DNA from: Verrucomicrobiota bacterium
GTDB taxonomy: Bacteria; Verrucomicrobiota; Verrucomicrobiia; Palsa-1439
Length of the DNA: 64,000 nucleotides
Direction: 5' to 3'
Assembly (NCBI GenBank): GCA_016871575.1
Contig: VHCW01000003.1
Span: forward strand, 36,835-100,834
The first letter of the stretch is position 1; each line of letters opens with the position of its first letter. This document shows, one piece after another, positions 1 to 18,097 of this stretch. The position numbers were made by a program, and so were the translations under genes. The notes below the pieces were generated by a model. The model was not told where the DNA came from, searched no databases, and saw nothing but the letters and a program-made list of their open reading frames with translations.

Positions 1-1020
1 CGGGCGCCGGTAATAAATCGCTTCGAGGAACGCGTTGCCGAAACCTTCCCATGTGGACGGATAGGTGACGAGGTCGGAATGATGATAGACATCGGCCAGC
101 GAATACACCTTGCGCCCGTCCGCCGCCGTGCCGCGTTCGTTGCGGATGATGTTGGCGACAAACCGCACCGACACGCCGAGCCGCCGGGCGAACGAGAGCA
201 CGCGCTGCTCGTAGGCGTTGCCCTCGTCGCCGGTGGCGTGGGAAATGACCAGGCGCGCTTTCGGCCCGAGCCGGTCGGTCAGTTCGATGGCATGCTCGAT
301 TCCCTTGCGCTGGACGACGCGGGTCGGTTGCAACAGCAAAAACCCATGAGGAACCACTCCCAAAGCGCTCCGCACATCGGCGGCGTATTCATCGGGCGGC
401 GCCGGCGGCGTGTCGAAGTCCATGACGTTTGGGATCAGGTGGCTCATTTGCCCCGAGCGCAAGGCAAGCTGCGTGCCGGCGGAGGAGTTGATCACCACGT
501 GCCGGATGTGGTGGATGTTGGGCGGAAATGCGGCTTGCAGATAGTCCAGACCGCAGTTGACGAGAAACCGGTCGCGTTCCCAGTAAAAATCGTGATGATG
601 CGCGATGGTCGGGATGCCGCTCTCGGCGATGAATTCGGTCAGGGCCAGGCCGAGCGGGATGTTGAGCGGAATCGCCAGCGCGTTTTCCACGATCATCACC
701 TCGATGCCGAAATCATGGACAAACGCGCGGACGTCCTCCTTGAGCTTCGCCTTCAAGAGGTCCACTTTGCGCGTGATCTCGGGCGAACGATGCGGGTTGG
801 TGAACACATCGTTGTGGATCAATCCTATTTCCGGATGCAGAAAGAACGCTTCCGGCACCACCCGGCAGCGGTCCGCCGGCCGTTCGCAGACACCGGCAAA
901 GTAAAAACAGGTGTGACCCATCCGTTCCAGCACCGTCGCCCATTTCTCGGATTCGAGCGACACGCCGTCGGTCCCCTCAAACCGCGTCGAGACAAATCCG
1001 ATGCGCCGTGTCCGTTTCAT
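1..1020 (-). CDS. GT4-type glycosyltransferase, 3'-truncated by the window edge (N-terminus MKRTRRIGFVSTRFEGTDGV...)
   Basis: Own translation of the minus strand. ATG is at 1018-1020, 2 bp downstream of the GH13 gene stop. The C-terminal part carries the GT4 EX7E motif (TWEGFGNAFLEAIYY). It is not in the ORF track because it runs off the window. The + ORF 79..1050 is its antisense artefact. Confidence 0.6.
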   Translation of the reverse strand, partial: MKRTRRIGFVSTRFEGTDGVSLESEKWATVLERMGHTCFYFAGVCERPADRCRVVPEAFFLHPEIGLIHNDVFTNPHRSPEITRKVDLLKAKLKEDVRAFVHDFGIEVMIVENALAIPLNIPLGLALTEFIAESGIPTIAHHHDFYWERDRFLVNCGLDYLQAAFPPNIHHIRHVVINSSAGTQLALRSGQMSHLIPNVMDFDTPPAPPDEYAADVRSALGVVPHGFLLLQPTRVVQRKGIEHAIELTDRLGPKARLVISHATGDEGNAYEQRVLSFARRLGVSVRFVANIIRNERGTAADGRKVYSLADVYHHSDLVTYPSTWEGFGNAFLEAIYYRRP

Positions 1021-1022
1021 TT

Positions 1023-2612
1023 TCAGTTCGTCAGCCATAATGCCTCGTAAGCTTGCAGCAAAACTTCGCGCCTGTCCACTTGAACCCGCTGGCGCTCGCC
1101 GGACACGTTGTGCAGGCAGACCACGCTCTGCCGGCCATCCAGTGATGTGCGACGCAGCGCAAACACGGCGTCGCCGCAATCCAACACCTCTTGCGGCGCG
1201 CACGGATGGAACGCGGGCGAAGCGGCGCGACGGCGCAGCAACGCCCGGTACCCCTCGAATATCCGGCTGCGCTCCGCGCCGGGATCGGCCAACTCGCGCT
1301 CCAGTTCGGCGCGCGTGAACTTTTGACGGTTGATGGTCCGGTAGCGTCCCGTCTGCTTCACGCCCTCCGGCCAACCGCGCGAACCGAAGAGGCTGTGAAA
1401 ATAGATCCCCGGCAAACCGCGCAGCGCCAGCATGATCGCCTGCGCGCAGAGAAACGCGTCAGCGGTGCCCCCGATCGCGTCGAGGTAGTTCGCGTTCAGT
1501 TCGTAGGGGCCAGCGGAGCCGTGGGAGACGAGTTGGCCGCGCCACAACGCTTCGATCTCGGAGTCCGTCAGGATGCCGCGCGCGGGGGTCAGGCCGATGC
1601 CGTCGTGCGAGGCGAGGAAATTGAAGAACGTCACGTCAGGCAGCCCGGCGGCCCAGCGCGATAACGCCGCTGCGTTGCCGGTCCGAAGCGCGTGGAGCGT
1701 GAGCGGCGGCAACGGGAAATTATAGACGAGATGCGCCTCGTTCGTGCCGTCGCCGAAGTAGGAAATGTTGTCGCGGTGCGGGACGTTTGTCTCGGTGATG
1801 AGCATCACGCCCGGCGCAACGAGAGCGAGCACGGCGCGGATGAGTTGAACGATCCGGTGCGTCTGCGGCAGGTGAATGCACGAGGTGCCGATTTCCTTCC
1901 AGAGATAGGCGATGGCGTCGAGCCGGAGGAACTGCGCGCCGTTGGCGACGTAGAACAACAGGATATCGAGCATTTCCAGCAATACGTCCGGGTTGCGGTA
2001 GTTCAGGTCAATCTGGTCGGCGCTGAAGGTCGTCCAGACGTGACGGTTCCCGACGGGCGTCAGCACCGGCGAAGTGCGGGGTCGCACCACCTGCGAGAGA
2101 TCTGCGCGCGGATCGGCTTCGATAAAGTAGCCGGTGTAGGGCGGTTCGCCGCGCCGGTAGGCTTGGAACCATGCGCTCTGCGCCGAGATGTGGTTGATGA
2201 CGGCGTCGAGCATCAGCCGGCGGTTTGCGCCGAGCCGTTGCACGTCGCTCCACGTGCCGAGCGCCGGGTTGACCTGCCGGTAATCAATCACCGAAAAACC
2301 GTCATCGGACGAATACGGAAAATGCGGAAGCAGATGGACGCCGGTGATGATGTCAGCAGTGTGCTGGTCGAGGAATTCCGACAATGTCTGCAACGGCAGT
2401 TGTCCCGGCCCGGTCACGTGATCGCCGTAGGTGATGAGCAGGTTGTCGCGCTCCGTCAACGGCGTGACAGCGGCACGCAACGGTTTGTCGAGCTTCGGCG
2501 CCAGCCGTTCCCAGGTTGCCCGGCCCGGCTGTTCTCCATATAAGAACTGCAGGCACGCGAGAATGTCTTTGTCCGGTTGCATCTTGCCCGTGTATCCTGC
2601 GTGCTGCATCAC
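1023..2612 (-). CDS. GH13 sucrose-phosphorylase-like glycoside phosphorylase (GH13_18-type)
   Basis: 529-aa ORF with sucrose phosphorylase/amylosucrase-like motifs (LPHFPYSSDDGFSVIDY, RLDAIAYLWKE, FLASHDGIG). It sits upstream of the GT4 gene in the same orientation. Confidence 0.8.
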   Translation of the reverse strand: MMQHAGYTGKMQPDKDILACLQFLYGEQPGRATWERLAPKLDKPLRAAVTPLTERDNLLITYGDHVTGPGQLPLQTLSEFLDQHTADIITGVHLLPHFPYSSDDGFSVIDYRQVNPALGTWSDVQRLGANRRLMLDAVINHISAQSAWFQAYRRGEPPYTGYFIEADPRADLSQVVRPRTSPVLTPVGNRHVWTTFSADQIDLNYRNPDVLLEMLDILLFYVANGAQFLRLDAIAYLWKEIGTSCIHLPQTHRIVQLIRAVLALVAPGVMLITETNVPHRDNISYFGDGTNEAHLVYNFPLPPLTLHALRTGNAAALSRWAAGLPDVTFFNFLASHDGIGLTPARGILTDSEIEALWRGQLVSHGSAGPYELNANYLDAIGGTADAFLCAQAIMLALRGLPGIYFHSLFGSRGWPEGVKQTGRYRTINRQKFTRAELERELADPGAERSRIFEGYRALLRRRAASPAFHPCAPQEVLDCGDAVFALRRTSLDGRQSVVCLHNVSGERQRVQVDRREVLLQAYEALWLTN

Positions 2613-2618
2613 GGCAAA

Positions 2619-3044
2619 TCAAGCGGCTTGATTTGATTCGCGCGGCACCCGGGAGTGCAACTGGAACGAGACGTAGTGGGTGATCTTGCCGTTGTCGTCG
2701 CAGATCGGGCTGATGTTCCACGAGGCGAGATACGGTGTGCCGTCCTTGCGGTAGTTGATCGTCTGGCCGGTGAACGGTTCGCCGTTCTTGAGACACTCGG
2801 CGAGTTGACGGAGCAGCCCCTTGTCCGTCCGCGGCCCCTGCAAAATGCGCGGCGTCTGGCCAATCAATTCCTTCTCCGCATAGCCCGTGCTGGCGCAGAA
2901 GGCGCGGTTGGCAAATACAATCCGCGGTCCCGGCCGCTTCAGCCCGGCTTCGGTGATGATGATCGGGATGTTCGCCCCCTGCAACGCGCGTTCCATGGCG
3001 GCCAGTAAATTCATGTAGCTCGCAACTGGGTCAGTTGTTTTCAT
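2619..3044 (-). CDS. Short LOV-type PAS domain protein lacking the adduct-forming cysteine
   Basis: Aligns along its length to LOV domains such as YtvA (PRIVFANRAF..TGY..ELIGQTPRILQGPRTD ... NYRKDGT ... ITHYVSFQ). The canonical GxNCRFLQG is replaced by GQTPRILQG. The track start at 3053 is GTG, and the first ATG is at 3044. Confidence 0.7.
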   Translation of the reverse strand: MKTTDPVASYMNLLAAMERALQGANIPIIITEAGLKRPGPRIVFANRAFCASTGYAEKELIGQTPRILQGPRTDKGLLRQLAECLKNGEPFTGQTINYRKDGTPYLASWNISPICDDNGKITHYVSFQLHSRVPRESNQAA

Positions 3045-3080
3045 GCCGCCCACTATAGCATGTGCTAGAATCCTCCCGCA

Positions 3081-4517
3081 ATGGCCACTCCACTTATTTT
3101 ACTCACCGGCGCCACCGGCTACGTCGGCGGACGGCTGCTCACCGAATTGGTGACCGCCGGCTACCGGGTCCGCTGTCTGGCGCGACGACCGGAGAATCTG
3201 CGCCCGCGCGTGCCGGCTGGCGTGGAGGTGGTCGCGGGCGATTTGCTCGATGCAGCGTCGTTGCCGGCAGCCTTCGCCGGCGTGCAGGTGGCGTATTATC
3301 TGGTCCACTCGATGGGGTCGACCGGCAACTTCGAGGAGCAAGACCGTCAGGCGGCGCACAACTTCGGCGCAGCCGCCAAGATGGCCAGTGTGCAACGCAT
3401 CATCTACCTCGGCGGCCTCGGCGACGATTCGAGCCACCTTTCCGCGCATCTGCATAGCCGGCATGAAGTCGGCGCGGTGTTGCGCGCCTCCGGGGTGCCG
3501 GTCACCGAGTTTCGCGCGTCCATCATCATCGGGTCCGGCAGTTTGTCGTTCGAAATGATCCGCGCCTTGGTCGAGCGGTTGCCGGTGATGATCACGCCCC
3601 GCTGGGTGCGCGTGTTGGCGCAGCCGATCTTCGTCGGTGACGTGCTCGCGTATCTGGTGGCGGCGGCAACGAGCGGCGAAGATCGTATTTACGAAATCGG
3701 CGGCCCGGATGTTGTTTCGTATCAGGAATTGATGCGCGAGTACGCCCGGCAACGCGGCCTGCGCCGGTGGATGATTCCGGTGCCGGTGCTGACGCCGCGG
3801 CTGTCGAGTCTGTGGCTGGGACTGGTGACGCCGTTGTACGCCCGCATCGGCCGCAAGCTGATCGCCAGCATCCAACATCCGACGGTCGTGCGCGACGACG
3901 CAGCCCGACGCGCGTTTCCCATTGAGCCGGTCGGAATCCGTGAAGCGATCACGCGCGCACTGCGCAACGAGGACCGTGAATGCGCGCAGACGCGTTGGTC
4001 CGACGCCGTCAGCGCCGCCGGCACGGAACGACAATGGGGCGGCGTTCGCTTTGGTAACCGGCTCGTGGACACGCGCAGCGTGACCGTGCCGGCAACCGTG
4101 GCCGAGGCGTTCGCGCCCATCGAACGCATTGGCGGCGTGACTGGCTGGTATTATGCCGATTGGCTCTGGACGTTGCGTGGCGGGCTGGATTTGCTGGTCG
4201 GCGGCGTCGGAATGCGACGTGACCGACGGAATCCCGAATCGCTCGCAGTCGGCGACACGGTGGATTGCTGGCGTGTCGAGGCAATCGAGCCGGGGCGACG
4301 GCTACGCTTGGCTGCGGAGATGAAGTTGCCGGGCCGCGCGTGGCTGGAGTTTGTCGTCGAACCGGCCGGGACCGGCGCAGTGATTCGACAAACGGCCATC
4401 TTTGACCCGGTGGGTTTGTGGGGGTTGCTGTACTGGTATGCGGTCTGGCCGCTGCATCAACTGGTCTTTGCCGGCATGTTGCGGGCCATCAGCCGCGCGA
4501 GCCGGCAACGATTGTAA
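3081..4517 (+). CDS. NAD(P)H-binding SDR/NmrA-like protein fused to a DUF2867-like C-terminal domain
   Basis: N-terminal TGATGYVGG Rossmann motif. 478 aa. ATG is at 3081. Confidence 0.75.
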   Translation: MATPLILLTGATGYVGGRLLTELVTAGYRVRCLARRPENLRPRVPAGVEVVAGDLLDAASLPAAFAGVQVAYYLVHSMGSTGNFEEQDRQAAHNFGAAAKMASVQRIIYLGGLGDDSSHLSAHLHSRHEVGAVLRASGVPVTEFRASIIIGSGSLSFEMIRALVERLPVMITPRWVRVLAQPIFVGDVLAYLVAAATSGEDRIYEIGGPDVVSYQELMREYARQRGLRRWMIPVPVLTPRLSSLWLGLVTPLYARIGRKLIASIQHPTVVRDDAARRAFPIEPVGIREAITRALRNEDRECAQTRWSDAVSAAGTERQWGGVRFGNRLVDTRSVTVPATVAEAFAPIERIGGVTGWYYADWLWTLRGGLDLLVGGVGMRRDRRNPESLAVGDTVDCWRVEAIEPGRRLRLAAEMKLPGRAWLEFVVEPAGTGAVIRQTAIFDPVGLWGLLYWYAVWPLHQLVFAGMLRAISRASRQRL

Positions 4518-4927
4518 CGTTGCGCGAGGATGCACGGCAGATTCGCCGCGACCGCATAGGCGACGATGATCACATCGCCCCACCACGGATTCCATAGGAA
4601 AAACACCGGCGCGCAGCCGATGGCGCACCAGTGACACAACTCCCCGCGCCACGTCTCGCGAGCGAAACGCTGCCAGTAGTCCGCGCCCTTGCCGGTCACT
4701 TCTCCTTTTGCAAACCCGCCGGAAAACCACCGCGCCGCGTCGGGCAGGTAATCCTTCCAGCGTTTGATCGCGAAGACCTGCTCGTAAAACCGGCCACCGC
4801 GCTCCCACGAGCGGGCCGGGCCGGGATTGAACCACGCGACCGGCATCTTCGTGAACGCCCACGCCAGACCAAGCTGGATGAACAGCCAGCCGCCGACGTT
4901 GAGCGCGATGATGATCTCAATCCGCAC
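4457..4927 (-). CDS. crtO: Glycosyl-4,4'-diaponeurosporenoate acyltransferase (CrtO-like)
   Basis: 156-aa membrane protein with the CrtO C-terminal signature LAQRYNRCRL (S. aureus CrtO has IVQRYNRPRL). It lies immediately downstream of crtQ and overlaps it by 11 bp. It overlaps the convergent SDR gene's 3' end by about 60 bp. Confidence 0.65.
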   Translation of the reverse strand: MRIEIIIALNVGGWLFIQLGLAWAFTKMPVAWFNPGPARSWERGGRFYEQVFAIKRWKDYLPDAARWFSGGFAKGEVTGKGADYWQRFARETWRGELCHWCAIGCAPVFFLWNPWWGDVIIVAYAVAANLPCILAQRYNRCRLARLMARNMPAKTS

Positions 4928-5846
4928 GGATTTCCCGTCCTTTCCAAGTCACCTGTTTGCCCGACCGCAACGCCGACCGGGCGAACACCGCAAAGAAGAA
5001 GCAGAGCGGCACCGGGTACAACACTGCCGTGTACCACCGAAATGCGCCGACCCGCCGGCTGACCCAGCCGACATGCGCCGCGCACAGCGCGTACGCCACC
5101 GTCGCCCAGACCGTGAACGGCAACAACACCACCGGCAACATCAACCCAATCATCCACGCCACGATCAACAGCAACCGCAATTTCGGCGTCTGCCCAGCCC
5201 CCGACGCGAATCCTTTCGTCCATCCCTCGATTAACTCGCGCAGGCCGTTCGGGTACATGCGGAACGAAAACATCCCGCGCCCGCTCACGCTGCGCACGGG
5301 AATCCCAGCCGCGCGAAACAGTGACGCCAGAAAAAAGTTTTCCAAAATGCGTCCCTTCACCGCTTCGTGTCCGCCGACGCGCCGGTAATTTTCCCGGTCC
5401 ACCAGCAACATCTGCCCGAACAACCCGCCCGGCACCGTGCCCGCCGTCATCACCAGATTGAAGAACGCCGAAAGCTGTTCGTGAGGCTGCCGGACAGCGT
5501 GATACGGCCCGACCGACAACGCGCCGCCGGTATAGGTCGCGAGAATCTTCTCTAATCCATCCGCTTCGAACCACGTATCCGCGTCGAGGAACAACAACCG
5601 GTCACCGGTCGCTGCCTGCGCCCCCTGGTGACACGCCCAAGTTTTCCCGCGCCACCCGTCCGGCAACGGCTGCGATTGAATTACCCGTGCGCCGAGTTCC
5701 CGCGCCACCGCCGCCGTCCGGTCCGTCGAGCCGTCATCCACCACGATGACCTCTGCCGGCTTGTCGGACTGCGCGTTGATGGAGCGCAACAATACCGGGA
5801 GGTTCTGCTCCTCATTGCGCGCCGGGATGATGATCGTGGTTTCCAT
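4917..5846 (-). CDS. crtQ: 4,4'-diaponeurosporenoate glycosyltransferase (GT2, CrtQ-like)
   Basis: Start METTIIIPARNEE at aa 58 of track ORF 4917..6017. It shares many blocks with S. aureus CrtQ: IIIPARNEE, DDGSTD, LSVGPYH, FRMY, EGWTK, SGAG, TWKGR. Confidence 0.8.
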   Translation of the reverse strand: METTIIIPARNEEQNLPVLLRSINAQSDKPAEVIVVDDGSTDRTAAVARELGARVIQSQPLPDGWRGKTWACHQGAQAATGDRLLFLDADTWFEADGLEKILATYTGGALSVGPYHAVRQPHEQLSAFFNLVMTAGTVPGGLFGQMLLVDRENYRRVGGHEAVKGRILENFFLASLFRAAGIPVRSVSGRGMFSFRMYPNGLRELIEGWTKGFASGAGQTPKLRLLLIVAWMIGLMLPVVLLPFTVWATVAYALCAAHVGWVSRRVGAFRWYTAVLYPVPLCFFFAVFARSALRSGKQVTWKGREIRAD

Positions 5847-5889
5847 TGCCGTTCTCTTTCTACACCCTTGCTGCCCGCCGGGCAACCAC

Positions 5890-5918
5890 TTGAAGACAAT
5901 GCACGCTTCGGGTAAAAT
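5890..5918 (+). promoter_or_regulatory. Near-consensus sigma70-type promoter (TTGAAG-17 bp-TAAAAT) directly abutting the ATG at 5925, implying a leaderless or near-leaderless transcript
   Basis: The -35 TTGAAG is at 5890-5895 and the -10 TAAAAT at 5913-5918. The ATG of the downstream four-helix-bundle gene is at 5925. The AT-rich hexamers stand out in a ~65% GC background. Confidence 0.35.
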
Positions 5919-5924
5919 CAAACC

Positions 5925-6704
5925 ATGCCATCCGACCAATCCGACGGATCTGCCCGATCTTCTGCTGCAAAGCGCCTGCGCCCCAGTGGCGGCTACCGCA
6001 CACTGCACTCCTTCCAAGTGACCACGGTGATCTACGACGGCACAGTTTCATTCTGCGAACGCTTCGTGGACAAGCGTTCCCGGCTCGTGGATCAGATGAC
6101 GCAGGCCGCGCGGTCCGGGCGGCAGAACATCGCCGAGGGCAGCCGGGCGTCCGCGACTTCCAGCCAGACCGAACTGCGCCTGATCAACGTCGCCCGCGCC
6201 AGCCTCGACGAACTGCTGCTCGACTTCGAGGACTACCTCCGCCAACACGGCCTCCCGCAATGGGCCAAGGACAGCCCCGAAGCTCTCGCCGTCCGGCGCG
6301 TGGGCCAGCAATTGGCAAAATCTGATCAGTCGGATCAGTCTAATCCGCCCGATCAATCCGCTCTCTACCGGCCGTGGCTGGCGCACAAAGACCCCGCCGT
6401 GGTCGCCAACACCCTCATCTGTCTCATTCACCAAGCCAACTACCTGCTCGACCAACAAGTGCGCGCCCTGGAAAAGGAATTTGTCACCAAAGGCGGCTAC
6501 AGCGAACAACTCGCCGCCGCCCGCCTCGCTCACCGGTCTGCCAAAGATCGGCCTGCTCCGTCCTCTTCCCCTCCGTCCCCGCCACCCTGCCCGGTCTGTG
6601 GCAGCCTCATGGCCGTGCGCACCGCCAAGAAAGGCCCGCGTGCCGGCAACCAATTCTGGGGCTGCACCAAATATCCCGCCTGCAAAGGCACGAAGCCGGT
6701 CTGA
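5925..6704 (+). CDS. Four-helix-bundle protein (23S rRNA intervening-sequence protein family) fused to a C-terminal topoisomerase-type C4 zinc ribbon
   Basis: N-terminal YRTLHSFQ...NIAEGSRASATSSQTEL..ARASLDELLLDFEDYL resembles TIGR02436-type proteins. The C-terminal CPVCGSLMAVRTAKKGPRAGNQFWGCTKYPACKGT resembles the zf-C4 topoisomerase DNA-binding motif. A low-complexity S/P/D/Q linker joins them. Confidence 0.65.
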   Translation: MPSDQSDGSARSSAAKRLRPSGGYRTLHSFQVTTVIYDGTVSFCERFVDKRSRLVDQMTQAARSGRQNIAEGSRASATSSQTELRLINVARASLDELLLDFEDYLRQHGLPQWAKDSPEALAVRRVGQQLAKSDQSDQSNPPDQSALYRPWLAHKDPAVVANTLICLIHQANYLLDQQVRALEKEFVTKGGYSEQLAAARLAHRSAKDRPAPSSSPPSPPPCPVCGSLMAVRTAKKGPRAGNQFWGCTKYPACKGTKPV

Positions 6705-6804: not shown

Positions 6805-8370
6805 TTACTTACCGGCCTTGTCCCACGCCACCACCTTCTTGGCGACGTTCTGGCCGCAGAGGACGACCATCGGCATCCCGCCGCCGGGGTTGACGCTGCC
6901 GCCGACGAAAAACAGGTTCTCGTATTTCGTGCTCTGCTTCGGGGCTTTGAACGCGAGGTTCTTCCAGCGGTCGCTGACGACGCCGTAGATCGAGCCTTTG
7001 TTGGAAAAGTAGTTGGCGCGGATATCGAGCGGCGTCCAGATGTGCTCGTACACGGTGTGTTTGCGGAGGTCTTTGAGGCCCATCCGTTCGAGCTTGTCCA
7101 CGACGCGCTCTTTCAACGCGATGTAATCCTCGCGCTTCAACGGCTGCGCGTCGTTGATGTATGGGATGTGCGGCAGAATCTTGAGGCAATCGCAGCCCGG
7201 CGGGGCAACGGTCGGGTCGGTCTTCGACGCGGCGACGAGGTAGATGGTCGGGTCGGGCGGGAGTTGGTGTTTTTGAAACACCGTGCGGAAATGTTCGCGC
7301 TGGTGCTGTGAAAAAAAGAAATTGTGATGCACCAACTGCGGATACTTGCAGTCAAGCCCAAGGTCGAGCACCAGCCCGGAGCAGGCCGGTTCGAATTTCT
7401 TTTCGAGCTTGGCGACGAAAGCGGCGTCTTCCTTCAGCAGTTCCCGGTAAGCGGGAATGACTTCCATGTTGGAAACGACGATGTCAGCGGCATGGAACAC
7501 GCCATCCTTGGTCACGATGCCGGTGACTCGCTCGCCGCGTGAGGTCACGCGGCCTACAGTGCCCGATGCAACATGGCCAGATGTTGTAGGCCCGCTGACC
7601 CCAGCGGGCGTTGCCGTTGTGCGGATGCCGGCAATCTCACTGTTGAGTTGAACCTTAACACCGAGTTCCTCCATCAACCGCCGCAAACCGAGCGCGATCC
7701 CGTACAGCCCGCCATCCACGTACCAGAGGTCATACCGGAACTGAATCGTCGGCATGCAGTTCATGAACGCGGGCGCCCGGTACGCCGATGAGCCGACGTA
7801 CTTGATGAAATAATCGAAGATGTCCTGCATCTTCTGGGTCTTGAGAAACCGTTTCACTCCGCCGTGCATCGAGCGCAGCAGGTCGAACTGCGGAAATTTG
7901 CTCAAGCCGTAGAACTCGCGGAACTCAGCAGAGGTATCGAGTCCTTGCTGGAAGTAACCGGCGTCGCAGAGGTCGTAGAGCTTGGCGGAGTAATCGAGAA
8001 ACCGCTGAACGTTGGCCGGGTCTTCGCCGACCTTGCGCGCCTCGGCGGCCATCACGGCGGGATCGGGATCGAGGTCCACCACCGTGCCGTCCTCGAAAAA
8101 GTTCCGCCAATGCGGACGCAGCGTGCGAATCGGGATGTAGTCCTTCATCTTCTTGCCCGACCGCTCGAACAACCGCTCGAAGATGTGCGGCAGCGTCAGG
8201 ATGGACGGGCCGAGGTCAAACGTGTAGCCGCGTTCCTTGAGCACGTTGAGCTTGCCACCGATTTTGGAGTTCTTCTCATGAATCGTGACTTCGTAACCTT
8301 CCTGCCACAGCGAAATGGCCGCTGACAATCCGCCCAGCCCGGCCCCGATGACGATGATTTTCTTTTTCAT
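6805..8370 (-). CDS. Phytoene desaturase family protein (CrtI/CrtN/CrtP-like diapocarotenoid desaturase or oxidase)
   Basis: Start MKKKIIVIGAGLGGLSAAISL (FAD Rossmann) at aa 73 of the track ORF. The ATG at 8368-8370 was checked in the sequence. Context is carotenoid genes. Confidence 0.8.
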   Translation of the reverse strand: MKKKIIVIGAGLGGLSAAISLWQEGYEVTIHEKNSKIGGKLNVLKERGYTFDLGPSILTLPHIFERLFERSGKKMKDYIPIRTLRPHWRNFFEDGTVVDLDPDPAVMAAEARKVGEDPANVQRFLDYSAKLYDLCDAGYFQQGLDTSAEFREFYGLSKFPQFDLLRSMHGGVKRFLKTQKMQDIFDYFIKYVGSSAYRAPAFMNCMPTIQFRYDLWYVDGGLYGIALGLRRLMEELGVKVQLNSEIAGIRTTATPAGVSGPTTSGHVASGTVGRVTSRGERVTGIVTKDGVFHAADIVVSNMEVIPAYRELLKEDAAFVAKLEKKFEPACSGLVLDLGLDCKYPQLVHHNFFFSQHQREHFRTVFQKHQLPPDPTIYLVAASKTDPTVAPPGCDCLKILPHIPYINDAQPLKREDYIALKERVVDKLERMGLKDLRKHTVYEHIWTPLDIRANYFSNKGSIYGVVSDRWKNLAFKAPKQSTKYENLFFVGGSVNPGGGMPMVVLCGQNVAKKVVAWDKAGK

Positions 8371-8390: not shown

Positions 8391-8798
8391 TCACGGAAAG
8401 GGATTGATGACTTTCACGCAGGCCTTCTTGAAATCGGCCTGATTGCGGGTCACGACACTCAGGCCATGGACCAGTGCGGTCGCCGCAATCAGGCTGTCTT
8501 TGATCGGCATCGCCTGACCTTGCCGGCGCAAATCGGCCAGCAGTTGCGCCCAACGCAACCCGCACGCGGCATCCCACGGCACACAAACAATTCGGGCGAC
8601 GCCCTCCCGGAACCAGCGATCCAATTGCTGACGGCGTTTCCCTGCGGGGAGCAGATGAATGCCAAACCGAATCTCGCCGAGGATGATCGGGTCAACCGCA
8701 ATCTCGCGTTCATTCGTGCGCAACCATTCAATCACGGCGGGTTCCGGCGCGGGTTTGGTCGGCTCGCTCAGCACATTGGCGTCAACGAGGTAATTCAC
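8391..8798 (-). CDS. vapC: Type II toxin VapC (PIN domain)
   Basis: 135 aa starting MNYLVDANVLSE, with PIN acidic residues. It overlaps the upstream antitoxin gene by 4 bp. Its stop is 20 bp before the desaturase ATG. Confidence 0.8.
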   Translation of the reverse strand: MNYLVDANVLSEPTKPAPEPAVIEWLRTNEREIAVDPIILGEIRFGIHLLPAGKRRQQLDRWFREGVARIVCVPWDAACGLRWAQLLADLRRQGQAMPIKDSLIAATALVHGLSVVTRNQADFKKACVKVINPFP

Positions 8799-9025
8799 AG
8801 GCTATCCGTGGATTCGGATTCAATCGGGACGAAGAACCCCTTTTGCGGACAGGCCAACAACCAATCCACCAGCCCTTCATTGGGACGCGGCTGCCGGCGG
8901 ACGAGCCGGTACTCGCCCCGGTCGATGCGCTCAACCTCGAACTCCTGACCCGCCTCGATCCCGTCCTGCTGTCGAATCTTGGCGGGCAAGATGATCTGTC
9001 CTTTCGTGGAAACCATGGTTGTCAT
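8795..9025 (-). CDS. vapB: AbrB/MazE/SpoVT-type antitoxin (VapB)
   Basis: 76 aa with MTTMVSTKGQIILPAKIRQ, typical of the swapped-hairpin antitoxin family. It sits upstream of vapC and overlaps it. Confidence 0.7.
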   Translation of the reverse strand: MTTMVSTKGQIILPAKIRQQDGIEAGQEFEVERIDRGEYRLVRRQPRPNEGLVDWLLACPQKGFFVPIESESTDSL

Positions 9026-9819: not shown

Positions 9820-11202
9820 ATGCCGCCGACAATTCACCCATCAATTATGGACTGCGCGCCACTCATCGCCCGGCAACGCCAGTATTTCCAAACCGGTGCC
9901 ACGCGCCCGTTGGCCTACCGGCAGGATCAGCTTCGCCGGCTCCAAGCGGCTATCGAAGCCTGCGAGGTCGCGCTCCTCGACGCGCTCCATGCCGACCTCC
10001 GCAAATCTCCGCACGAAGCCTACACCTCCGAAATCGGTTTCGTCCTCAACGACATCCGCCACGCACTCAAATACCTGCCGGCCTGGATGAACCCAAAGCG
10101 CCGCGGTCTCCCGCTCATGGCGTGGCCGGGCCGCGCCGCGGTCCATTCCGAACCCTACGGCGTCGCCCTCATCATCGGCCCGTGGAACTATCCGTTCCAA
10201 CTTCTCCTCTCGCCGCTCGTCGGCGCAATCGCCGCCGGCAACTGTGTCGTCGTCAAACCATCCGAGTTCGCGCCGCACACTTCCGCAGTCGTGGCAAAAC
10301 TGATCGCCGATACTTTTTCACCCGAATACATCGCCGTCGTCGAGGGCGAACGCGATGCCGCCGAGGCGTTGCTCCGCGAAAAATTCGACGTCATCTTTTT
10401 TACCGGTAGCACCGCCGTTGGCCGCGCTGTGATGACCGCCGCCGCGAAGCATCTCACGCCGGTCACGCTCGAACTCGGCGGCAAGTGCCCGGCCATCGTT
10501 TGCGCCGACGCCCCGCTCGACGTCGCCGCCCGGCGCATCGCATGGGGCAAATTCATGAACGCCGGCCAGACCTGCGTCGCGCCGGACTTCGTTCTGGTGG
10601 ATCGCCGCGTCCGGCAGTTGTTGGTGGACGCGCTCCGGCAAGCCGTTCGCGAGTTCTACGGCGACGACCCGCAACAAAGTCCTGACTATGGCCGCATCAT
10701 CAACCGCCGGCACTTTGACCGGCTCAGCGCCTTCGCGACCGGCAACGCCGATGATCTCTACATCCCGCCCACGATCCTCACCGACACTTCGTGGGACGCG
10801 CCGGTGATGCAGGAGGAAATCTTCGGCCCGATCCTGCCGGTGCTGGAGTTCGACGCGCTGGATGACGCGCTCGCGAAGTTGCGCGACCGGCCGACGCCAC
10901 TGGCGCTGTACCTGTTCACCAACGACCGCGCCACGCAGGAGCGCGTGATTGCCGGAACGCGCAGCGGCGGGGCATGCCTCAACGACACCATCGTCCAGAT
11001 TATTGGTCACGATCTCCCGTTCGGCGGCGTCGGCGAAAGCGGCATGGGCCGGTATCACGGCAAGGCGAGCTTCGACTGCTTCAGTCACCGGCGATCCGTC
11101 GTGCGGCGCTCGCTGTTGTTCGATTCCCGTTTCCGTTATCCGCCACCGAAGTTGTCGCTGGAGAAATTGAAGAAGGCCTACCGGTTCTTGCTGGGCGGCT
11201 GA
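9820..11202 (+). CDS. Aldehyde dehydrogenase family (ALDH3-like), candidate diapocarotenoid aldehyde dehydrogenase
   Basis: ALDH motifs LELGGKCP and FMNAGQTCVAPD (catalytic Cys), with the second catalytic motif EEIFGPILPV. An alternative start is at 9847 (MDCAPLIARQRQYF). Sits with the carotenoid genes. Confidence 0.8.
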   Translation: MPPTIHPSIMDCAPLIARQRQYFQTGATRPLAYRQDQLRRLQAAIEACEVALLDALHADLRKSPHEAYTSEIGFVLNDIRHALKYLPAWMNPKRRGLPLMAWPGRAAVHSEPYGVALIIGPWNYPFQLLLSPLVGAIAAGNCVVVKPSEFAPHTSAVVAKLIADTFSPEYIAVVEGERDAAEALLREKFDVIFFTGSTAVGRAVMTAAAKHLTPVTLELGGKCPAIVCADAPLDVAARRIAWGKFMNAGQTCVAPDFVLVDRRVRQLLVDALRQAVREFYGDDPQQSPDYGRIINRRHFDRLSAFATGNADDLYIPPTILTDTSWDAPVMQEEIFGPILPVLEFDALDDALAKLRDRPTPLALYLFTNDRATQERVIAGTRSGGACLNDTIVQIIGHDLPFGGVGESGMGRYHGKASFDCFSHRRSVVRRSLLFDSRFRYPPPKLSLEKLKKAYRFLLGG

Positions 11203-11606
11203 ACCTGTTCGGTGATCTCGGCCACGGCCGACACCGGCGTGTTCATTGCGGCGGTGAAAAAGCTGACGCGCAGCCGAAGACAGGTCAGCCGCGAATGAAC
11301 ACGAATGCTTTCGAATGTTGCCAACTGACGCGGCCCGCCCGCGTTCGCTCCAGTGATTGTGTCAGCGCGCCAACCGGTTCAGTCTGAGGAATAACCTTCG
11401 TGATGGCGGCCTCTTTGGTGAACATTGGCGGCTCAGAATTGTCGTGGCTGGGAATTGTCACGGTGCGGATTTGTGGCTATGGTAGGCGGCGTTATGAATC
11501 GAAATGCTGACGGCAACCGGTGCGGTTGCCCAACACTTCTTTTGCGGGCACGGCGGTTGCCGGCCGTGACCCCTCGGCGTTCTCTGCGCCTCTGTGGTGA
11601 GGTACG

Positions 11607-13392: not shown

Positions 13393-15653
13393 CGCAGGTC
13401 GATCAATCCCACGAACCGCTCGTGGGAGCGAAGGCGGCGCGCCTGGCCATCCTCTCCAAGACCGGTCACCCGGTTGCGCCGGGGTTTTGCGTGGCGGTCG
13501 GCGCTTACGAATGTTTTCTGGCCGAGTCCCGTCTGGAGACCCTGATCCGCATGGAACTGGATCGCAAACGATTCGAGGACATGCGCTGGGAGGAATTGTG
13601 GGACGCGGCGCTGCGGATTCGGGCCGCGTTCAACGCGCACCCCGTGCCGGCGGCGGTGGCGGCCGCGGTGGACGAGGCGCTGGCGGGTTACCCGGCGGAT
13701 CTCGCGTGGGCGGTGCGGTCGTCGGCGCCGGGCGAGGACGCCGCGCACCGGTCGTTTGCCGGGTTGCATGAGTCGTACGTGGGCGTGGTGGGCCGGGCAG
13801 CCGTGCTCGACGCGCTGCGGCTGGTCTGGGCGTCGTTGTGGTCGGATGCGGCGATGCTGTACCGGCGCGAGGTCGGGCTTGATCCCGCGCACAGCCGGAT
13901 GGCGGTGCTGGTCCAGGCCATGCGCACCGCTCCGGTCTCGGGCGTGGCGTTCGGCTGCGATCCCCGGCAATTGTCGCGCGAGATCGCCATCATCGAAGCC
14001 GTGCCGGGAGTCTGCGCGGGATTGGTGGATGGCGAGATTGATCCCGACCGTTGGCAACTGCGCCGCGCCGACGGCACGGTGGTCGCGTGGCAACCCGGCC
14101 AGCGCGAGCCGGCCGGCACTCCCGGTCCGTTGCTCGACGGCGCTGACATCAGCCATTTGCTGCGCGTGATTTCGTCGGTCGAGGAACAGTTCCGCTGGCC
14201 GCCGGACATTGAATGGACGGGGCGCGCGGCAGAGTTCACCCTGCTCCAGGCCCGGCCGGTCACCACGGCCGCGCCTGCCGGCGATGACAAACGCGAATGG
14301 TATCTCACGCTCCGGCCCGGCCTGGCCCGGTTGCGCAAGCTGCGGACGCGCGTCGCCGACGAGTTGATTCCCGCGCTCGCGGCGGAAGGCGCGCGCTTGG
14401 CCGCCGCGAACCTCGACGCGCACACCGAGGCGCAGTTGGCCGATGCGATTGCCGAACGCCGCGACGCGCTCCAGCGATGGACGAAAATCTACTGGGACGA
14501 GTTCATTCCGTTCGCCCACGGCGTGCGGCGGTTGGCGGTGTACTACAACGACGCGGTGCGCCCGCGCGACCCGTATGAGTTTGTCGGGCTGCTGCAGGGC
14601 GAAGATCTCCTGGCGAGCCAGCGCAACGCCGCGCTGCACGCCATCGCCGACCAAGTCCGCCAACAGCCGCCGCTGGCCGCCACCCTCGACCAAGCCGGCC
14701 ACTGGCTGCCCGCGGAGCCGGAACGATGGGCCGACACGGTTCGGGCGGTCACCGGCGGCGAAGTGTTTCTGGCGGCGTTCCGGCGCGTCATGGAAAACGC
14801 GCTCGACCTCGCCTACGACACCGCGCGTCTGGCCGACCGGCCCGACCTGATTCTGCGGTCGGTTCTGGAACTGGCGCGCGCCACCACGCGACCGCACGGT
14901 GCGGCGACGGAGTCGCCCAGCACCACCGTCGCGACCCTCGAACAGCGGCTGCTGGCGGCCGTCGGTCCGGCCCGGCAGGAAGAAGCGCGCGAGACACTCG
15001 CCACGGCCCGGCTCAGTTGGCGGCTGCGCGATAACGACAACCTGTTGCTGTCGCGGATCGAGTCGCAATTGATCCGAGCAATCGAAATCGCCGCACGACG
15101 GCTCAAAGCCGCGGGCCGGCTGGCGGCCAACGCCCCGGTTTCCGCCAAGGTGGCGGAACTGGTCATCGCCGCGTTACGCGACCGTTCCGGTGCCGTGCTG
15201 GTCCTGCCGGTGGAACAACCGGCCGCCGCAACGGTCGCCGTTGCCGGGACGCGCGCCGAAACCCCTCGGCAACTGACCGGCCAACCCGCCGCCGCCGGCT
15301 TGGCAACCGGCAAAGTCCGGTGCGTCCGCCGCACGGAAGACTTGGGACGATTTCAAGCCGGGGAAGTGCTGGTATGCGATGCCATCCAACCGATGATGAC
15401 CCATCTCGTGCCGTTGGCCTGTGCGGTTGTGGAACGCCGCGGCGGCATGCTCATCCACGGCGCGATCATCGCCCGCGAGCTGGGCATCCCCTGCGTCAAC
15501 GGCGTCCCCGATGTCGTCGAACTGCTGCCCGACGGCCAAGTGGTGACCGTGGATGGTTACTTGGGAATTGTGACTGTCGGCCCACCCGACTTCGACCTGG
15601 AACTGGCCGCCCGCCAGCAGCCCCGCGCGCGGCGGGCCGATCATTTGCCATGA
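13359..15653 (+). CDS. PEP-utilising enzyme, rifampin-phosphotransferase-like architecture (N-terminal PEP/pyruvate-binding ATP-grasp, C-terminal phosphohistidine swivel domain)
   Basis: 764 aa. N-terminus LVGAKAARLAILSKTGHPVAPGFCV (PPDK_N-like). C-terminus GGMLIHGAIIARELGIPCVNGV (PEP-utilisers mobile domain). The stop overlaps the next start as ATGA. Confidence 0.75.
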   Translation: MGAGSRYIIPLAQVDQSHEPLVGAKAARLAILSKTGHPVAPGFCVAVGAYECFLAESRLETLIRMELDRKRFEDMRWEELWDAALRIRAAFNAHPVPAAVAAAVDEALAGYPADLAWAVRSSAPGEDAAHRSFAGLHESYVGVVGRAAVLDALRLVWASLWSDAAMLYRREVGLDPAHSRMAVLVQAMRTAPVSGVAFGCDPRQLSREIAIIEAVPGVCAGLVDGEIDPDRWQLRRADGTVVAWQPGQREPAGTPGPLLDGADISHLLRVISSVEEQFRWPPDIEWTGRAAEFTLLQARPVTTAAPAGDDKREWYLTLRPGLARLRKLRTRVADELIPALAAEGARLAAANLDAHTEAQLADAIAERRDALQRWTKIYWDEFIPFAHGVRRLAVYYNDAVRPRDPYEFVGLLQGEDLLASQRNAALHAIADQVRQQPPLAATLDQAGHWLPAEPERWADTVRAVTGGEVFLAAFRRVMENALDLAYDTARLADRPDLILRSVLELARATTRPHGAATESPSTTVATLEQRLLAAVGPARQEEARETLATARLSWRLRDNDNLLLSRIESQLIRAIEIAARRLKAAGRLAANAPVSAKVAELVIAALRDRSGAVLVLPVEQPAAATVAVAGTRAETPRQLTGQPAAAGLATGKVRCVRRTEDLGRFQAGEVLVCDAIQPMMTHLVPLACAVVERRGGMLIHGAIIARELGIPCVNGVPDVVELLPDGQVVTVDGYLGIVTVGPPDFDLELAARQQPRARRADHLP

Positions 15654-17224
15654 GAAACTTGATCCTCGTGCTCGGCGATCAACTCGACGCGAAGTCGGCA
15701 GCCTTCGACGGTTTCGACCCGAAACAGGACGCCGTCTGGATGGCGGAGGTCAGCGACGAGGCGGAACACGTCTGGTCGCACAAGGCGCGCATCGCCATCT
15801 TCCTCTCGGCGATGCGGCATTTCCGCGACGAGTTGCGCGCGCGGGGGATCACGGTGCACTACCGGGAGTTGTGTGATTCGACCTTTGGTGCGGAACTGAC
15901 GAAATCCATCCGGCAACTCAAACCACAAAGTGTTATCGTGGTTGAACCCGGCGAGTGGCGGGTACAGGAGGAATTGAAACGCGCGGTGCCGGGTTTGGAG
16001 ATTCGACCTGACCGGCATTTTTTGTATTCGCGCGAAGAGTTCGCAGCACACGCCGCCGGGCGCAAACAGTTGCGGTTGGAATTTTTCTACCGCGAGATGC
16101 GCCGCAAACACAACGTGCTGATGGACGGCGATAAGCCCGTCGGTGGCACGTGGAACTTCGACAAGGAAAACCGCGCCACCTTCGGCAAAGAGGGGCCGGG
16201 GTTGATTCCGAAGCCGGTCGGGTTCAAGCCGGATACGACGACGCGCGAGGTGTTGGCGCTGGTCGAGAAACGATTCGCGAAGCATCCCGGCCGCCTGGAC
16301 AAGTTTGATTGGCCGGTCACGCGCGTGCAAGCGAAAGAGGCGCTCGACGACTTCATTGCGAACCGGCTGGCGGATTTCGGCCGGGTCGAGGACGCGATGT
16401 GGACAGGGCAGCCGTTGTTGTACCATTCCCGGCTGTCGGCAGCGCTGAACCTGAAATTACTTGACCCGCGCGAGGGGATCGCCGCCGCTGTAGGCCGACT
16501 CTGTGAGTCGGCGAAGGAGGGGCGCGCCGCTTCGCAGAAGCGGCCTACAACAGGCGCGCCGTTGCCGGCGGTGGAGGGATTTGTTCGGCAACTGCTCGGC
16601 TGGCGCGAATATGTACGGGGCGTGTACTGGCAGTTCATGCCGGGTTACGCCTCACTCAACGCGCTCGAAGCCAAGCGGAAGTTGCCGGAGTTTTATTGGA
16701 CGGGTGACACGGAGATGAATTGTTTGCGCGAGGTGATTGGGCAGACGCTCGAACTCGGATTCGCGCATCACATCCAGCGGTTGATGGTGACCGGCACGTA
16801 CGCGTTGTTACTTGGCGTGGATCCGGTCGAGGTGCACAAGTGGTATCTGGCGGTGTACGTGGACGCGGTGGAATGGGTCGAGTTGCCCAACGTGCTTGGC
16901 ATGTCGCAATACGCCGACGGCGGGATCATGGCGTCGAAACCCTACATCGCGACCGGCAAATACATTCAGCGGATGAGCAATTACTGTCAAGGTTGCCGGT
17001 TCAAGACGGACAAGGCGACCGGCCCGGAAGCGTGTCCGTTCACGACGTTGTATTGGGATTTTTTGCTGCGCCACGAGAAACTGCTGAAGCAAAATCAACG
17101 AATGGCGTTGCAGGTGAAAAATCTGGCGCGGCTTGACGCTGATCAGCGCGCGGCGATTCGCCGGCAAGCCGACGCTATTCGCGTGGTGCCGGCAGGTGCA
17201 TCTGGAACGAAACGTAGTGGGTGA
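15650..17224 (+). CDS. FeS-BCP / CryB-PhrB-type cryptochrome-photolyase family protein (COG3046), candidate (6-4) photolyase
   Basis: Start MRNLILVLGDQLD at aa 111 of the track ORF. The C-terminal four-Cys cluster YCQGCRF...EACPF is typical of Fe-S bacterial cryptochrome/photolyases. Confidence 0.8.
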   Translation: MRNLILVLGDQLDAKSAAFDGFDPKQDAVWMAEVSDEAEHVWSHKARIAIFLSAMRHFRDELRARGITVHYRELCDSTFGAELTKSIRQLKPQSVIVVEPGEWRVQEELKRAVPGLEIRPDRHFLYSREEFAAHAAGRKQLRLEFFYREMRRKHNVLMDGDKPVGGTWNFDKENRATFGKEGPGLIPKPVGFKPDTTTREVLALVEKRFAKHPGRLDKFDWPVTRVQAKEALDDFIANRLADFGRVEDAMWTGQPLLYHSRLSAALNLKLLDPREGIAAAVGRLCESAKEGRAASQKRPTTGAPLPAVEGFVRQLLGWREYVRGVYWQFMPGYASLNALEAKRKLPEFYWTGDTEMNCLREVIGQTLELGFAHHIQRLMVTGTYALLLGVDPVEVHKWYLAVYVDAVEWVELPNVLGMSQYADGGIMASKPYIATGKYIQRMSNYCQGCRFKTDKATGPEACPFTTLYWDFLLRHEKLLKQNQRMALQVKNLARLDADQRAAIRRQADAIRVVPAGASGTKRSG

Positions 17225-17333
17225 TCTTGCCGTTGTCGTTGCAGATCGGGCTGACCGGATTGGCGGCCTTGCCCGGCGGAAGCGAATACCAGACAAAGCT
17301 ATCGAGGACTTGTGGGTCGCGCTGGTTGGGGAC
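17172..17333 (-). pseudogene. Remnant of a LOV/PAS gene (C-terminal ~50 codons only), directly after the nitroreductase stop and in the same frame
   Basis: The minus-strand translation after the nitroreductase TGA reads VPNQRDPQVLDSFVWYSLPPGKAANPVSPICNDNGKITHYVSFQMHLPAPRE*. That matches the C-terminus of the 2619..3044 LOV protein (SPICDDNGKITHYVSFQLH). It is a ~57-bp near-identical DNA repeat of 2662-2718, with no start codon. Confidence 0.4.
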
Positions 17334-17990: not shown

Positions 17991-18097
17991 GGTTTCCTCT
18001 TTGATTGTGTGTGATGTTGGCTGCGAAGATCGCACAAAGCAGAGGCGACTGCCAGTCGCGGCTTGCCGGAACCCGGCTTTTCGGATAGAAACGCCTC

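Follow-up and report, generated by a model that had tools for sequence, protein, structure and literature searches.

A stand-alone LOV-like PAS protein with proline at the adduct-cysteine site, encoded in a verrucomicrobial photoprotection island

The 64-kb stretch of the genome of a Verrucomicrobiota bacterium analysed here (contig VHCW01000003.1, positions 36,835 to 100,834; hereafter the window) contains, at 2619..3044 on the minus strand, a gene for a 141-residue PAS protein that has the fold of a LOV domain and carries proline instead of the adduct-forming cysteine. We propose that this protein is a flavin-binding, adduct-incapable LOV-like sensor, in which reduction of the flavin and protonation of its N5 would be read by Gln128 and relayed to a partner, a proposal to which we give about an even chance of being correct. 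We favour a light or redox sensor because the protein combines a LOV-like pocket lacking the cysteine with a constant neighbourhood of pigment and photorepair genes. Flavin binding, the identity of the flavin, the nature of the input (light or redox state) and the partner are what we infer. Residues are numbered throughout from the ATG at 3044.

The predicted product matches the Pfam families PAS_9, PAS and PAS_3 (E 5e-14 to 3e-10), and its best single-domain matches in the PDB are LOV domains, headed by Arabidopsis phot2 LOV1 (2z6d; 83 bits, E 1e-22) and followed by the Chloroflexus CagFbFP series at ~78 bits and then by Brucella LOV-HK, YtvA, aureochrome and AsLOV2. MmoS (3ewk) holds the top PDB rank only because two of its PAS domains add 51–53 bits each. 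The HMMER alignment to phot2 LOV1 is free of gaps across residues 41–130, so that the mapping of residues onto LOV positions is secure, and the initial annotation was right to describe the protein as alignable with LOV domains. NCBIfam models rank alike, with the LOV histidine kinase at 87.7 bits, the YtvA family at 77.9 and NifL at 69.7; none of these three reaches its full-length cut-off, and the one model to pass is the generic PAS S-box.

The structural comparison that had been suggested alongside that alignment points the same way. An AlphaFold2 (AF2) model obtained with 48 homologues (pLDDT 91.7) has the LOV topology of the PAS fold, with A-beta/B-beta, the C–F alpha helices and the G–I beta strands making up a core of residues 28–132. 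An A'alpha-like helix at residues 4–23 (2976..3035, minus strand; DSSP on the AF2 model) is the sole flanking element; there is no J-alpha helix and no further domain, which is the architecture of a short, effector-less LOV protein and agrees with the earlier remark that an output domain is lacking. When the model is compared with the PDB by Foldseek, ranks 1–39 are all LOV domains (TM 0.70–0.77, rmsd 1.3–2 A), and NifL PAS1 (2gj3; TM 0.77) appears at rank 40.

At the adduct site, GQTPRILQGPRTD of the PAS protein aligns on GRNCRFLQGPDTD of phot2 LOV1, and the motif GQTPRILQG (residues 62–70, E-alpha region; 2835..2861, minus strand) falls on GRNCRFLQG in ungapped alignment, as it also aligns without gaps to CagFbFP. 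Thr64 therefore replaces the Asn and Pro65 the adduct-forming Cys, as first described from the translation, while R66 and Q69 are retained. Canonical and short LOV domains alike have their cysteine in the E-alpha motif GXNCRFLQ; Pro65 stands there in this protein, which thus has no Cys equivalent to C62 of YtvA, the first feature by which Yee et al. define 'LOV*' domains. Lacking the cysteine, the protein is unable to form a Cys-C4a adduct, which is chemically excluded.

As a reference for the rest of the pocket we used the structure-based contact list of DsLOV, in which N71, R73, Q76, N104, N114 and Q135 are hydrogen bonders, R73 and R89 are phosphate ligands, and the ring contacts include L116 and I118 (PMC4335406). 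Four of the six hydrogen bonders are kept (R73, Q76, N104 and Q135 correspond to R66, Q69, N97 and Q128), whereas N71, R89 and N114 are altered to T64, A82 and A107 respectively, the Thr being a conservative stand-in for Asn. The statement that the flavin-contacting Q, N and R positions are kept is thus correct for R66, Q69, N97 and Q128 but not for T64, A82 or A107, and the full flavin-binding set of a canonical LOV domain, with N, R and N at these three positions, is not present. N97, the first flavin-binding Asn (AsLOV2 N482, DsLOV N104), lies in the block INYRKDGT (residues 96–103; 2736..2759, minus strand), and both this NYRKDGT block and the THYVSFQ block are present as originally reported. 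A82 (2799..2801, minus strand) takes the place of the second phosphate-binding Arg (AsLOV2 R467, DsLOV R89). On H-beta, A107-S108-W109 (2718..2726, minus strand) puts alanine at the second flavin-binding Asn (N492/N114) and tryptophan at an isoalloxazine-contact position (AsLOV2 F494, DsLOV L116), the ring contact I118 being matched by I111. Q128 on I-beta (2661..2663, minus strand) is the equivalent of the LOV active-site Gln, which reads out N5 protonation (PMC4682037).

The T/S-P motif is found well beyond this one protein. A search of 5.8 billion clustered proteins gave 91 matches, about 60 of which are orthologues of 136 residues with 70–93% identity to the PAS protein; the remainder (37–58% identity) lie in proteins also bearing HisKA, GGDEF or ANTAR domains, and nearly all 91 have the motif G-[QK]-[TS]-P-R-[ILM]-L-Q-G. 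Scanning one genome per GTDB species for the pattern INYRKDG gave more than 595 confirmed loci, from which the best 80 were kept, and T/S-P is present in 78 of these. Uncultured Verrucomicrobiae or Verrucomicrobiota account for the five closest loci, and the best 80 as a whole come from Verrucomicrobiota, Balneolaceae and other Bacteroidota, Chloroflexota, Planctomycetota, Acidobacteriota and others, including the Gammaproteobacteria Stutzerimonas, Vreelandella/Halomonas, Pseudidiomarina and Ectothiorhodospira. The distant members are mostly of ~420 residues or more with several PAS domains, and among 77 scanned there are GGDEF domains in 14 and histidine-kinase ATPase domains in 12.

Column statistics over 150 domains (61 of the short verrucomicrobial subfamily and 89 distant relatives; AsLOV2 numbering) separate what is fixed from what varies. 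The C450 column is 98% P and the N449 column 98% T/S; R451, Q454 and N482 are kept in 100%, Q513 is Q in 94% (141/150), and the F494 column is W in 97% (146/150), down to relatives of ~37% identity. At R467 there is R or K in 81/89 distant members and A, T, V or S in the short subfamily, and at N492 there is N in 43/89 distant members, otherwise a hydrophobic residue, and A in the short subfamily. When 1.84 billion representatives were searched with a profile, the best 150 matches, which are long multi-PAS proteins, had the TP/SP motif in 60, NC in 28 and both in one protein in 9. Among the TP domains of this more distant set, V, I or L prevails at position 492 (the NC domains have N in 37/38), and position 494 is L in 18, W in 14 and F in 5, Trp not being universal there. 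The large sensor proteins with both TP-type and NCR-type LOV domains are P0129, P0161, P0172, P0200, P0201, P0211, P0230, P0237 and P0239.

A rough neighbour-joining (NJ) tree of 168 domains, drawn without support values and with the motif itself making up 2 of ~117 columns, groups 87/89 TP/SP domains in a single clade and all 51 NC/SC domains in a second, and no domain of one type has its nearest neighbour in the other. The PAS protein has the two signatures of the TP clade, G-x-[TS]-P-R-[ILM]-L-Q-G and I-N-Y-R-K-D-G, and by virtue of W109 it belongs to a Trp sub-clade. The replacement of the cysteine, described at first for this protein, is not confined to it, as T/S-P is a clade-wide signature spanning many phyla. 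On this evidence the absence of the Cys is an old, clade-level character that co-varies with other changes in the pocket, and the TP clade is a large, coherent and uncharacterised sister clade of LOV domains. Public records name its proteins only 'PAS domain-containing protein' (e.g. MBM3858218.1). An S-P-S variant that also lacks the first Arg occurs as GQSPSILDSP in PAS-B of MmoS (PDB 3ewk) and as GKSPSILQGP, and P0071–P0077 (Desulfobacteraceae, 141 residues), which carry this variant, are another stand-alone short form.

Conservation also decides whether the protein might be a canonical LOV photoreceptor in which the cysteine has moved. The candidate is C50 in RAFCASTGY, which occurs in 61/61 short-subfamily sequences and in 32/89 more distant relatives. 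It aligns with AsLOV2 L435 on the C-alpha helix, a position that is missing from the DsLOV list of isoalloxazine contacts and is unsuited to an adduct, so the initial annotation was justified in calling it non-canonical; its invariance is confined to the short subfamily, and most of the TP clade has T, E, R, S or K instead while P65 stays fixed. In BAT-LOV*, a natural domain with Pro at the Cys site that we return to below, even a Cys introduced at the canonical site (P188C) yields no adduct (PMC4682037). The two other cysteines fare no better: C84 aligns with AsLOV2 A469 and is not conserved even among orthologues, and C115 sits in the H-beta/I-beta loop. Alignment and conservation together rule out C50, C84 and C115 as a relocated adduct cysteine, and the earlier reservation, that careful alignment might place a Cys at the adduct position after all, is answered in the negative. 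A relocated cysteine is accordingly very improbable. More improbable still is a decaying or non-functional LOV remnant, as the loss of the photoactive Cys and of two flavin contacts might suggest: there are ~60 orthologues of constant length (136 residues) with invariant motifs, promoter and synteny are conserved, and the structure is predicted with confidence. Conservation rules out a pseudogene, and we treat both the relocated-cysteine and the remnant reading as effectively excluded.

The second body of evidence is the neighbourhood of the gene. In 11 of 11 independent loci (the window and ten others; loci are designated L001 onwards) the short subfamily is found within a photoprotection island, of which it is a constant resident. 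Its most conserved neighbour encodes an NAD(P)-binding NmrA/epimerase domain together with DUF2867 (SDR-DUF2867; 3081..4517, plus strand, in the window; Pfam), and the two genes diverge from each other in the window, L001, L005, L082 and L086 and lie close together in L003. On the other side the PAS gene stands tail-to-tail with a gene for photolyase (L001, L004), for the photolyase-related protein DPRP (L003, L006, L084) or for UvdE (L082), and in L002 a photolyase gene lies ~1.7 kb downstream with other open reading frames (ORFs) between. L001, L002 and L004 have a carotenoid cluster adjoining the PAS gene, and L002, L003, L082 and L084 have TspO; SOUL, SRPBCC and ICMT-like genes occur in several of the loci. 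This setting fits a role in light or photo-oxidative-stress responses. About 3 kb upstream of the PAS orthologue of L084 (positions 1–4889 of that locus) there is a type III-like CRISPR-Cas remnant (Cas_Cas02710/Csm6-like, Cas_NE0113, Cas1 and Cas2) with a 23S_rRNA_IVP gene.

Some islands contain a light-responsive regulator of their own. MerR-B12 genes with the signatures Wx9EH and xHELG, which we take to mark AdoB12-binding class I CarH/LitR photoreceptors, lie 2–7 kb from the PAS orthologue in L082/L083 (11083–11988 in L082) and in L086, where there are two copies (10674–11606 and 14890–15795). The same stretch carries genes for UvdE, SOUL, DUF4397, fasciclin, SRPBCC, an ICMT-like protein and Epimerase-DUF1731, and may be a putative verrucomicrobial CarH regulon; the LitR/CarH classes are described in PMC9758184. 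It is thus conceivable that the PAS protein is a member of a light regulon and not its sensor, AdoB12-CarH/LitR controlling the island and the PAS protein being a co-induced flavoprotein of redox or photo-oxidative stress (compare NifL and MmoS) or a flavin buffer. Besides the MerR-B12 genes, the hydrophobic residue or Ala that both the TP clade and the FAD-binding PAS domains of NifL and MmoS have at N492 is consistent with such a role, as are the score of the NifL model, little under those of the LOV models, the joint occurrence of TP and Cys-LOV domains in single proteins, and the behaviour of BAT-LOV*, which responds readily to chemical reduction and poorly to light. However, the 64-kb window yielded no MerR-B12 gene, a conserved extended -10 box of its own precedes the PAS gene, no operator conserved across five aligned intergenic regions is evident upstream, and the LOV-typical R-x-x-Q pair, absent from NifL, MmoS and Aer, is invariant. 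We consider membership of a regulon in this sense possible but unlikely.

A further alternative is that the domain binds a ligand other than flavin, or none, its LOV-like residues being ancestral relics in what would be a small-molecule sensor or an adaptor. No cofactor is known for most PAS domains, of the eight canonical polar flavin contacts three are changed here (T64, A82 and A107) and the Cys is absent; moreover, PAS-B of MmoS (GQSPSILDSP) is said not to bind FAD, a finding attributed to Ukaegbu and Rosenzweig (2009). On the other hand R66, Q69 and N97 are invariant across phyla, and Q128 and W109 are kept in at least 94%, all at flavin-contact positions, and Asn-to-Ala mutants of YtvA reportedly keep their FMN (a result credited to Raffelberg et al., 2011). 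A flavin-like ligand is likely because the invariant R66, Q69 and N97, with Q128 at ~94%, occupy DsLOV flavin-contact positions together with T64, P65, W109 and I111, and a non-flavin domain therefore seems to us rather doubtful.

In the mechanism that we favour, the PAS protein would hold a flavin in a LOV-type pocket, and the signalling event would be reduction of this flavin with protonation of N5. Reduction could be driven by blue light, with Trp109 or another Tyr or Trp as the electron donor, or by the redox state of the cell. Gln128 would read the protonation of N5, as in cysteine-less LOV variants and BAT-LOV*, and from there the beta-sheet and N-terminal helix would pass the signal on to a partner. 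One candidate partner is a transcription regulator of the photoprotection island, for which the PAS protein might serve as a short-LOV anti-repressor in the manner of PmSB-LOV and PmlR2; another is the divergently encoded SDR-DUF2867 protein. W109 itself may act as an electron donor, as in cryptochromes, or as a quencher, as W172 does in BAT.

Several observations weigh against a flavin-based sensor of this kind. Where islands contain class I CarH/LitR AdoB12 photoreceptors, these could by themselves explain light regulation. The loci of the distant TP family have no consistent light-related neighbourhood, the exceptions being a Comamonas locus with a divergent photolyase gene (L078) and one with DPRP ~7 kb away (L049). 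That TP and canonical Cys-LOV domains occur in one protein in 9/150 of the best representatives suggests that the two types, when in one chain, take different inputs. The modest flavin binding of BAT-LOV* and the quenching by its Trp raise the prospect that W109 could make the protein inert to light. Two more of the canonical flavin contacts are absent from the short subfamily (R467 to A82 and N492 to A107). Yee et al. required of LOV* domains at least 9 of the other 10 conserved residues, and of the nine listed (YtvA G59, N61, R63, F64, L65, Q66, N94, N104 and Q123) the protein keeps six (G62, R66, L68, Q69, N97 and Q128), T64, I67 and A107 differing. Finally, a literature search for the motif string 'TPRILQ' found no paper. 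Because CarH is present in some islands, TP and Cys-LOV domains coexist in single proteins and position 492 resembles that of NifL and MmoS, both the redox or regulon-member and the non-flavin readings stay alive beside the flavin-based sensor.

A bolder extension is that the TP/Trp clade comprises widespread natural blue-light receptors that use a cryptochrome-like transfer from Trp to flavin within a LOV scaffold, the stand-alone form acting as a photosensor, or as a co-sensor with CarH, that switches on carotenoid and photorepair genes through a partner. We regard this as speculative and not likely. Were the stand-alone form light-active, it would add to the photoreceptors known from Verrucomicrobia, Balneolaceae and many further bacteria left out of motif-based LOV censuses, and could supply a natural adduct-free scaffold for optogenetics and flavin-radical sensing; were it a redox sensor and nothing else, it would show where LOV domains end and NifL-type PAS domains begin.

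The limits of the gene itself required one correction. The ORF listing extends the minus-strand frame mechanically over 2619..3053, reaching a GTG at 3053, and the frame reported previously is present; its start is better placed at the ATG at 3044, which is favoured because the MK with which all orthologues begin lies at this position and because an extended -10 box, TGCTATAGT (3052..3060, minus strand), sits 7 nt 5' of it and is kept in five orthologous loci according to their alignment. Judged by this comparison ATG 3044 is most likely the translation start, and the PAS mRNA is probably leaderless. An extended -10-like box, TGTGCTAGAAT (3061..3071, plus strand), is partly conserved in the orthologous loci and would be the promoter of the divergent SDR-DUF2867 gene. 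The two boxes stand back to back (3052–3071) in the 36-nt gap between the divergent starts, and both mRNAs would be leaderless or nearly so. A scan of 2300–3300 for consensus sigma-70 promoters and terminators found no full -35/-10 promoter and no terminator. We also considered the 5-2-5 inverted repeat TAGCA-TG-TGCTA between the starts as an operator and rejected it, since it is merely two overlapping -10 boxes and is absent in orthologues with longer spacers.

Immediately downstream of the PAS gene, and starting 6 nt past its stop on the same strand, is a gene of the GH13 alpha-amylase family (529 residues; 1023..2612, minus strand) that is probably co-transcribed with it. GH13 adjoins the PAS gene only in the window, its place being taken elsewhere by the convergent photolyase, DPRP or UvdE gene, and its placement is a rearrangement specific to the window. 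Beyond SDR-DUF2867 lie the carotenoid genes whose proximity had been pointed out at the outset and which can now be named from Pfam and NCBIfam: a CrtO acyltransferase (PF18927; 4457–4927), a GT2 glycosyltransferase (4917–6017) and a crtI-family desaturase (6805–8370), all on the minus strand, then, beyond the desaturase and a gene for a TPR protein, an aldehyde dehydrogenase (9820–11202), and farther on a second crtI-family desaturase gene (18098–19579). By analogy with the gene families of the staphyloxanthin pathway, the set from CrtO to the aldehyde dehydrogenase would specify a glycosylated, acylated pathway of the C30 type. When the window was searched for CarH/LitR, photolyase, UvdE, TspO and SOUL genes, only DPRP was found (15650..17224, plus strand; Pfam DPRP E 3e-77; 73% identity by tblastn to the neighbour in L084). 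With a nitroreductase (17334–18035, minus strand) and the second desaturase gene it forms a second light-related block (15650–19579) ~13 kb from the PAS gene.

Some further features of this region deserve mention. The convergent SDR-DUF2867 (plus) and CrtO (minus) ORFs overlap by 61 nt at their 3' ends (4457–4517). Within the carotenoid operon, between the GT2 and desaturase genes, an ORF on the plus strand (5925–6704) encodes a 23S_rRNA_IVP four-helix bundle with a topoisomerase-type C4 zinc ribbon, and looks like an insertion because no such spacing exists in L001, L002 or L004. A pair comprising VapC (PIN) and an AbrB-type antitoxin (8391–9025, minus strand) is inserted between the desaturase and TPR genes.

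Among known systems the most instructive is that of the natural cysteine-less domains. Yee et al. (2015) found that VVD and YF1 go on signalling without the Cys, via photoreduction to the neutral semiquinone, and collected ~70 natural LOV* entries in which Ala, His or Pro stands in for the Cys (PMC4682037). The one natural case that they tested, an archaeal domain with poor photoreduction, is BAT-LOV*, a part of the bacterio-opsin activator of Halobacterium. It has Pro at the Cys site (GRNPRFLQG) and, like our protein, retains the R, the Q and the active-site Gln; for the sequences, our comparison is confined to the E-alpha block. BAT-LOV* co-purifies with little flavin and can be reconstituted with FAD, FMN or riboflavin; its photoreduction is poor as Trp172 quenches the excited state and is restored by W172F, whereas chemical reduction shifts its conformation (PMC4682037). 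Signalling through flavin reduction and not an adduct has been proposed for these domains, shown in vitro for BAT and linked to the response to light and oxygen. There are differences too: BAT keeps the Asn before the Pro and has at least 9/10 of the LOV residues, whereas our protein keeps 6/9 and lacks the second phosphate Arg, and BAT-LOV* is one domain of a large receiver-GAF-HTH regulator while the verrucomicrobial protein stands alone. The near-invariant Trp of the latter's relatives is at the F494/L116 contact position, whereas the quenching Trp172 of BAT is at the F434 position. The equivalent of W172 in our protein is F49, and good photoreduction has been predicted for homologues with Phe at this position (PMC4682037). 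Tyr/Trp chains are the electron path in Cys-less LOV domains, where proton transfer limits the semiquinone yield (Kopka et al., 2017; PMC5645311).

BAT-LOV* also sets the measure of what is new. The initial annotation proposed a natural adduct-free LOV sensor; a stand-alone, adduct-incapable LOV-like protein is indeed what we find, but with a Pro-site case already tested (PMC4682037) the interpretation is reasonable and not new in concept. Two things are new here: Pro marks a large, coherent and uncharacterised sister clade of LOV domains whose pocket changes co-vary, and synteny links a stand-alone verrucomicrobial form to carotenoid and photorepair genes. Whether nature makes use of adduct-free LOV signalling, and whether flavin redox sensors gave rise to the LOV photoreceptors, are questions that Yee et al. 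(2015) raised (PMC4682037). For these the TP clade, which their sequence filter would leave out, offers a large, ancient natural test set in which several pocket positions have changed together (Thr and Pro for Asn and Cys, a hydrophobic residue or Ala for the other Asn, and Trp at a ring contact), and it includes a small soluble member whose photoprotection neighbourhood, being conserved, predicts a phenotype.

In architecture the closest relatives are the short bacterial LOV photoreceptors DsLOV, PmSB-LOV, PpSB1-LOV and PpSB2-LOV, which likewise are stand-alone LOV cores of ~140 residues with flanking helices and no effector domain and which, by the Foldseek list, come closest in structure. 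In flanking elements DsLOV, like our model, is limited to an N-cap, and it controls photopigment synthesis (PMC4335406). PmSB-LOV, whose gene lies near photolyase and SDR genes, binds PmlR2, a class II LitR repressor, only in the light and thereby relieves repression of light-inducible genes near pmlR1/pmlR2, a region that includes phrB and an SDR gene (PMC9758184). All of these differ from the protein described here in having the cysteine of NCRFLQ, a complete set of flavin contacts and a photocycle from 450 to 390 nm, whereas it cannot make the adduct.

NifL PAS1 (2gj3), PAS-A of MmoS (3ewk) and Aer resemble our protein in lacking the adduct Cys and in having a residue other than Asn at N492 (V in the MmoS alignment), and are FAD-binding redox sensors that act through reduction of the flavin. 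They do not retain the R and Q of the R-x-x-Q pair that the clade of our protein keeps (NESILS in NifL, DHRIVN in MmoS and PHNMVR in Aer), and have NRRK where it has NYRK next to its RILQ. Scores separate them as well: the MmoS domains match at 51–53 bits (PAS-A at 51) as against 83 for phot2 LOV1, and the NifL model at 69.7 as against 87.7 for the LOV histidine kinase, so that the protein does not group with this type. The engineered VVD-III, YF1 C62A, iLOV-Q489D and CagFbFP share with it a LOV pocket without the Cys, and such engineered domains have been shown to signal or to photoreduce to the neutral semiquinone (PMC4682037, PMC5645311). Those, however, are laboratory mutants of Cys to Ala or Ser in an otherwise canonical pocket, whereas the verrucomicrobial protein is a natural member of an ancient clade, in which several pocket positions (T, P, A or V at 492, and W) have changed together.

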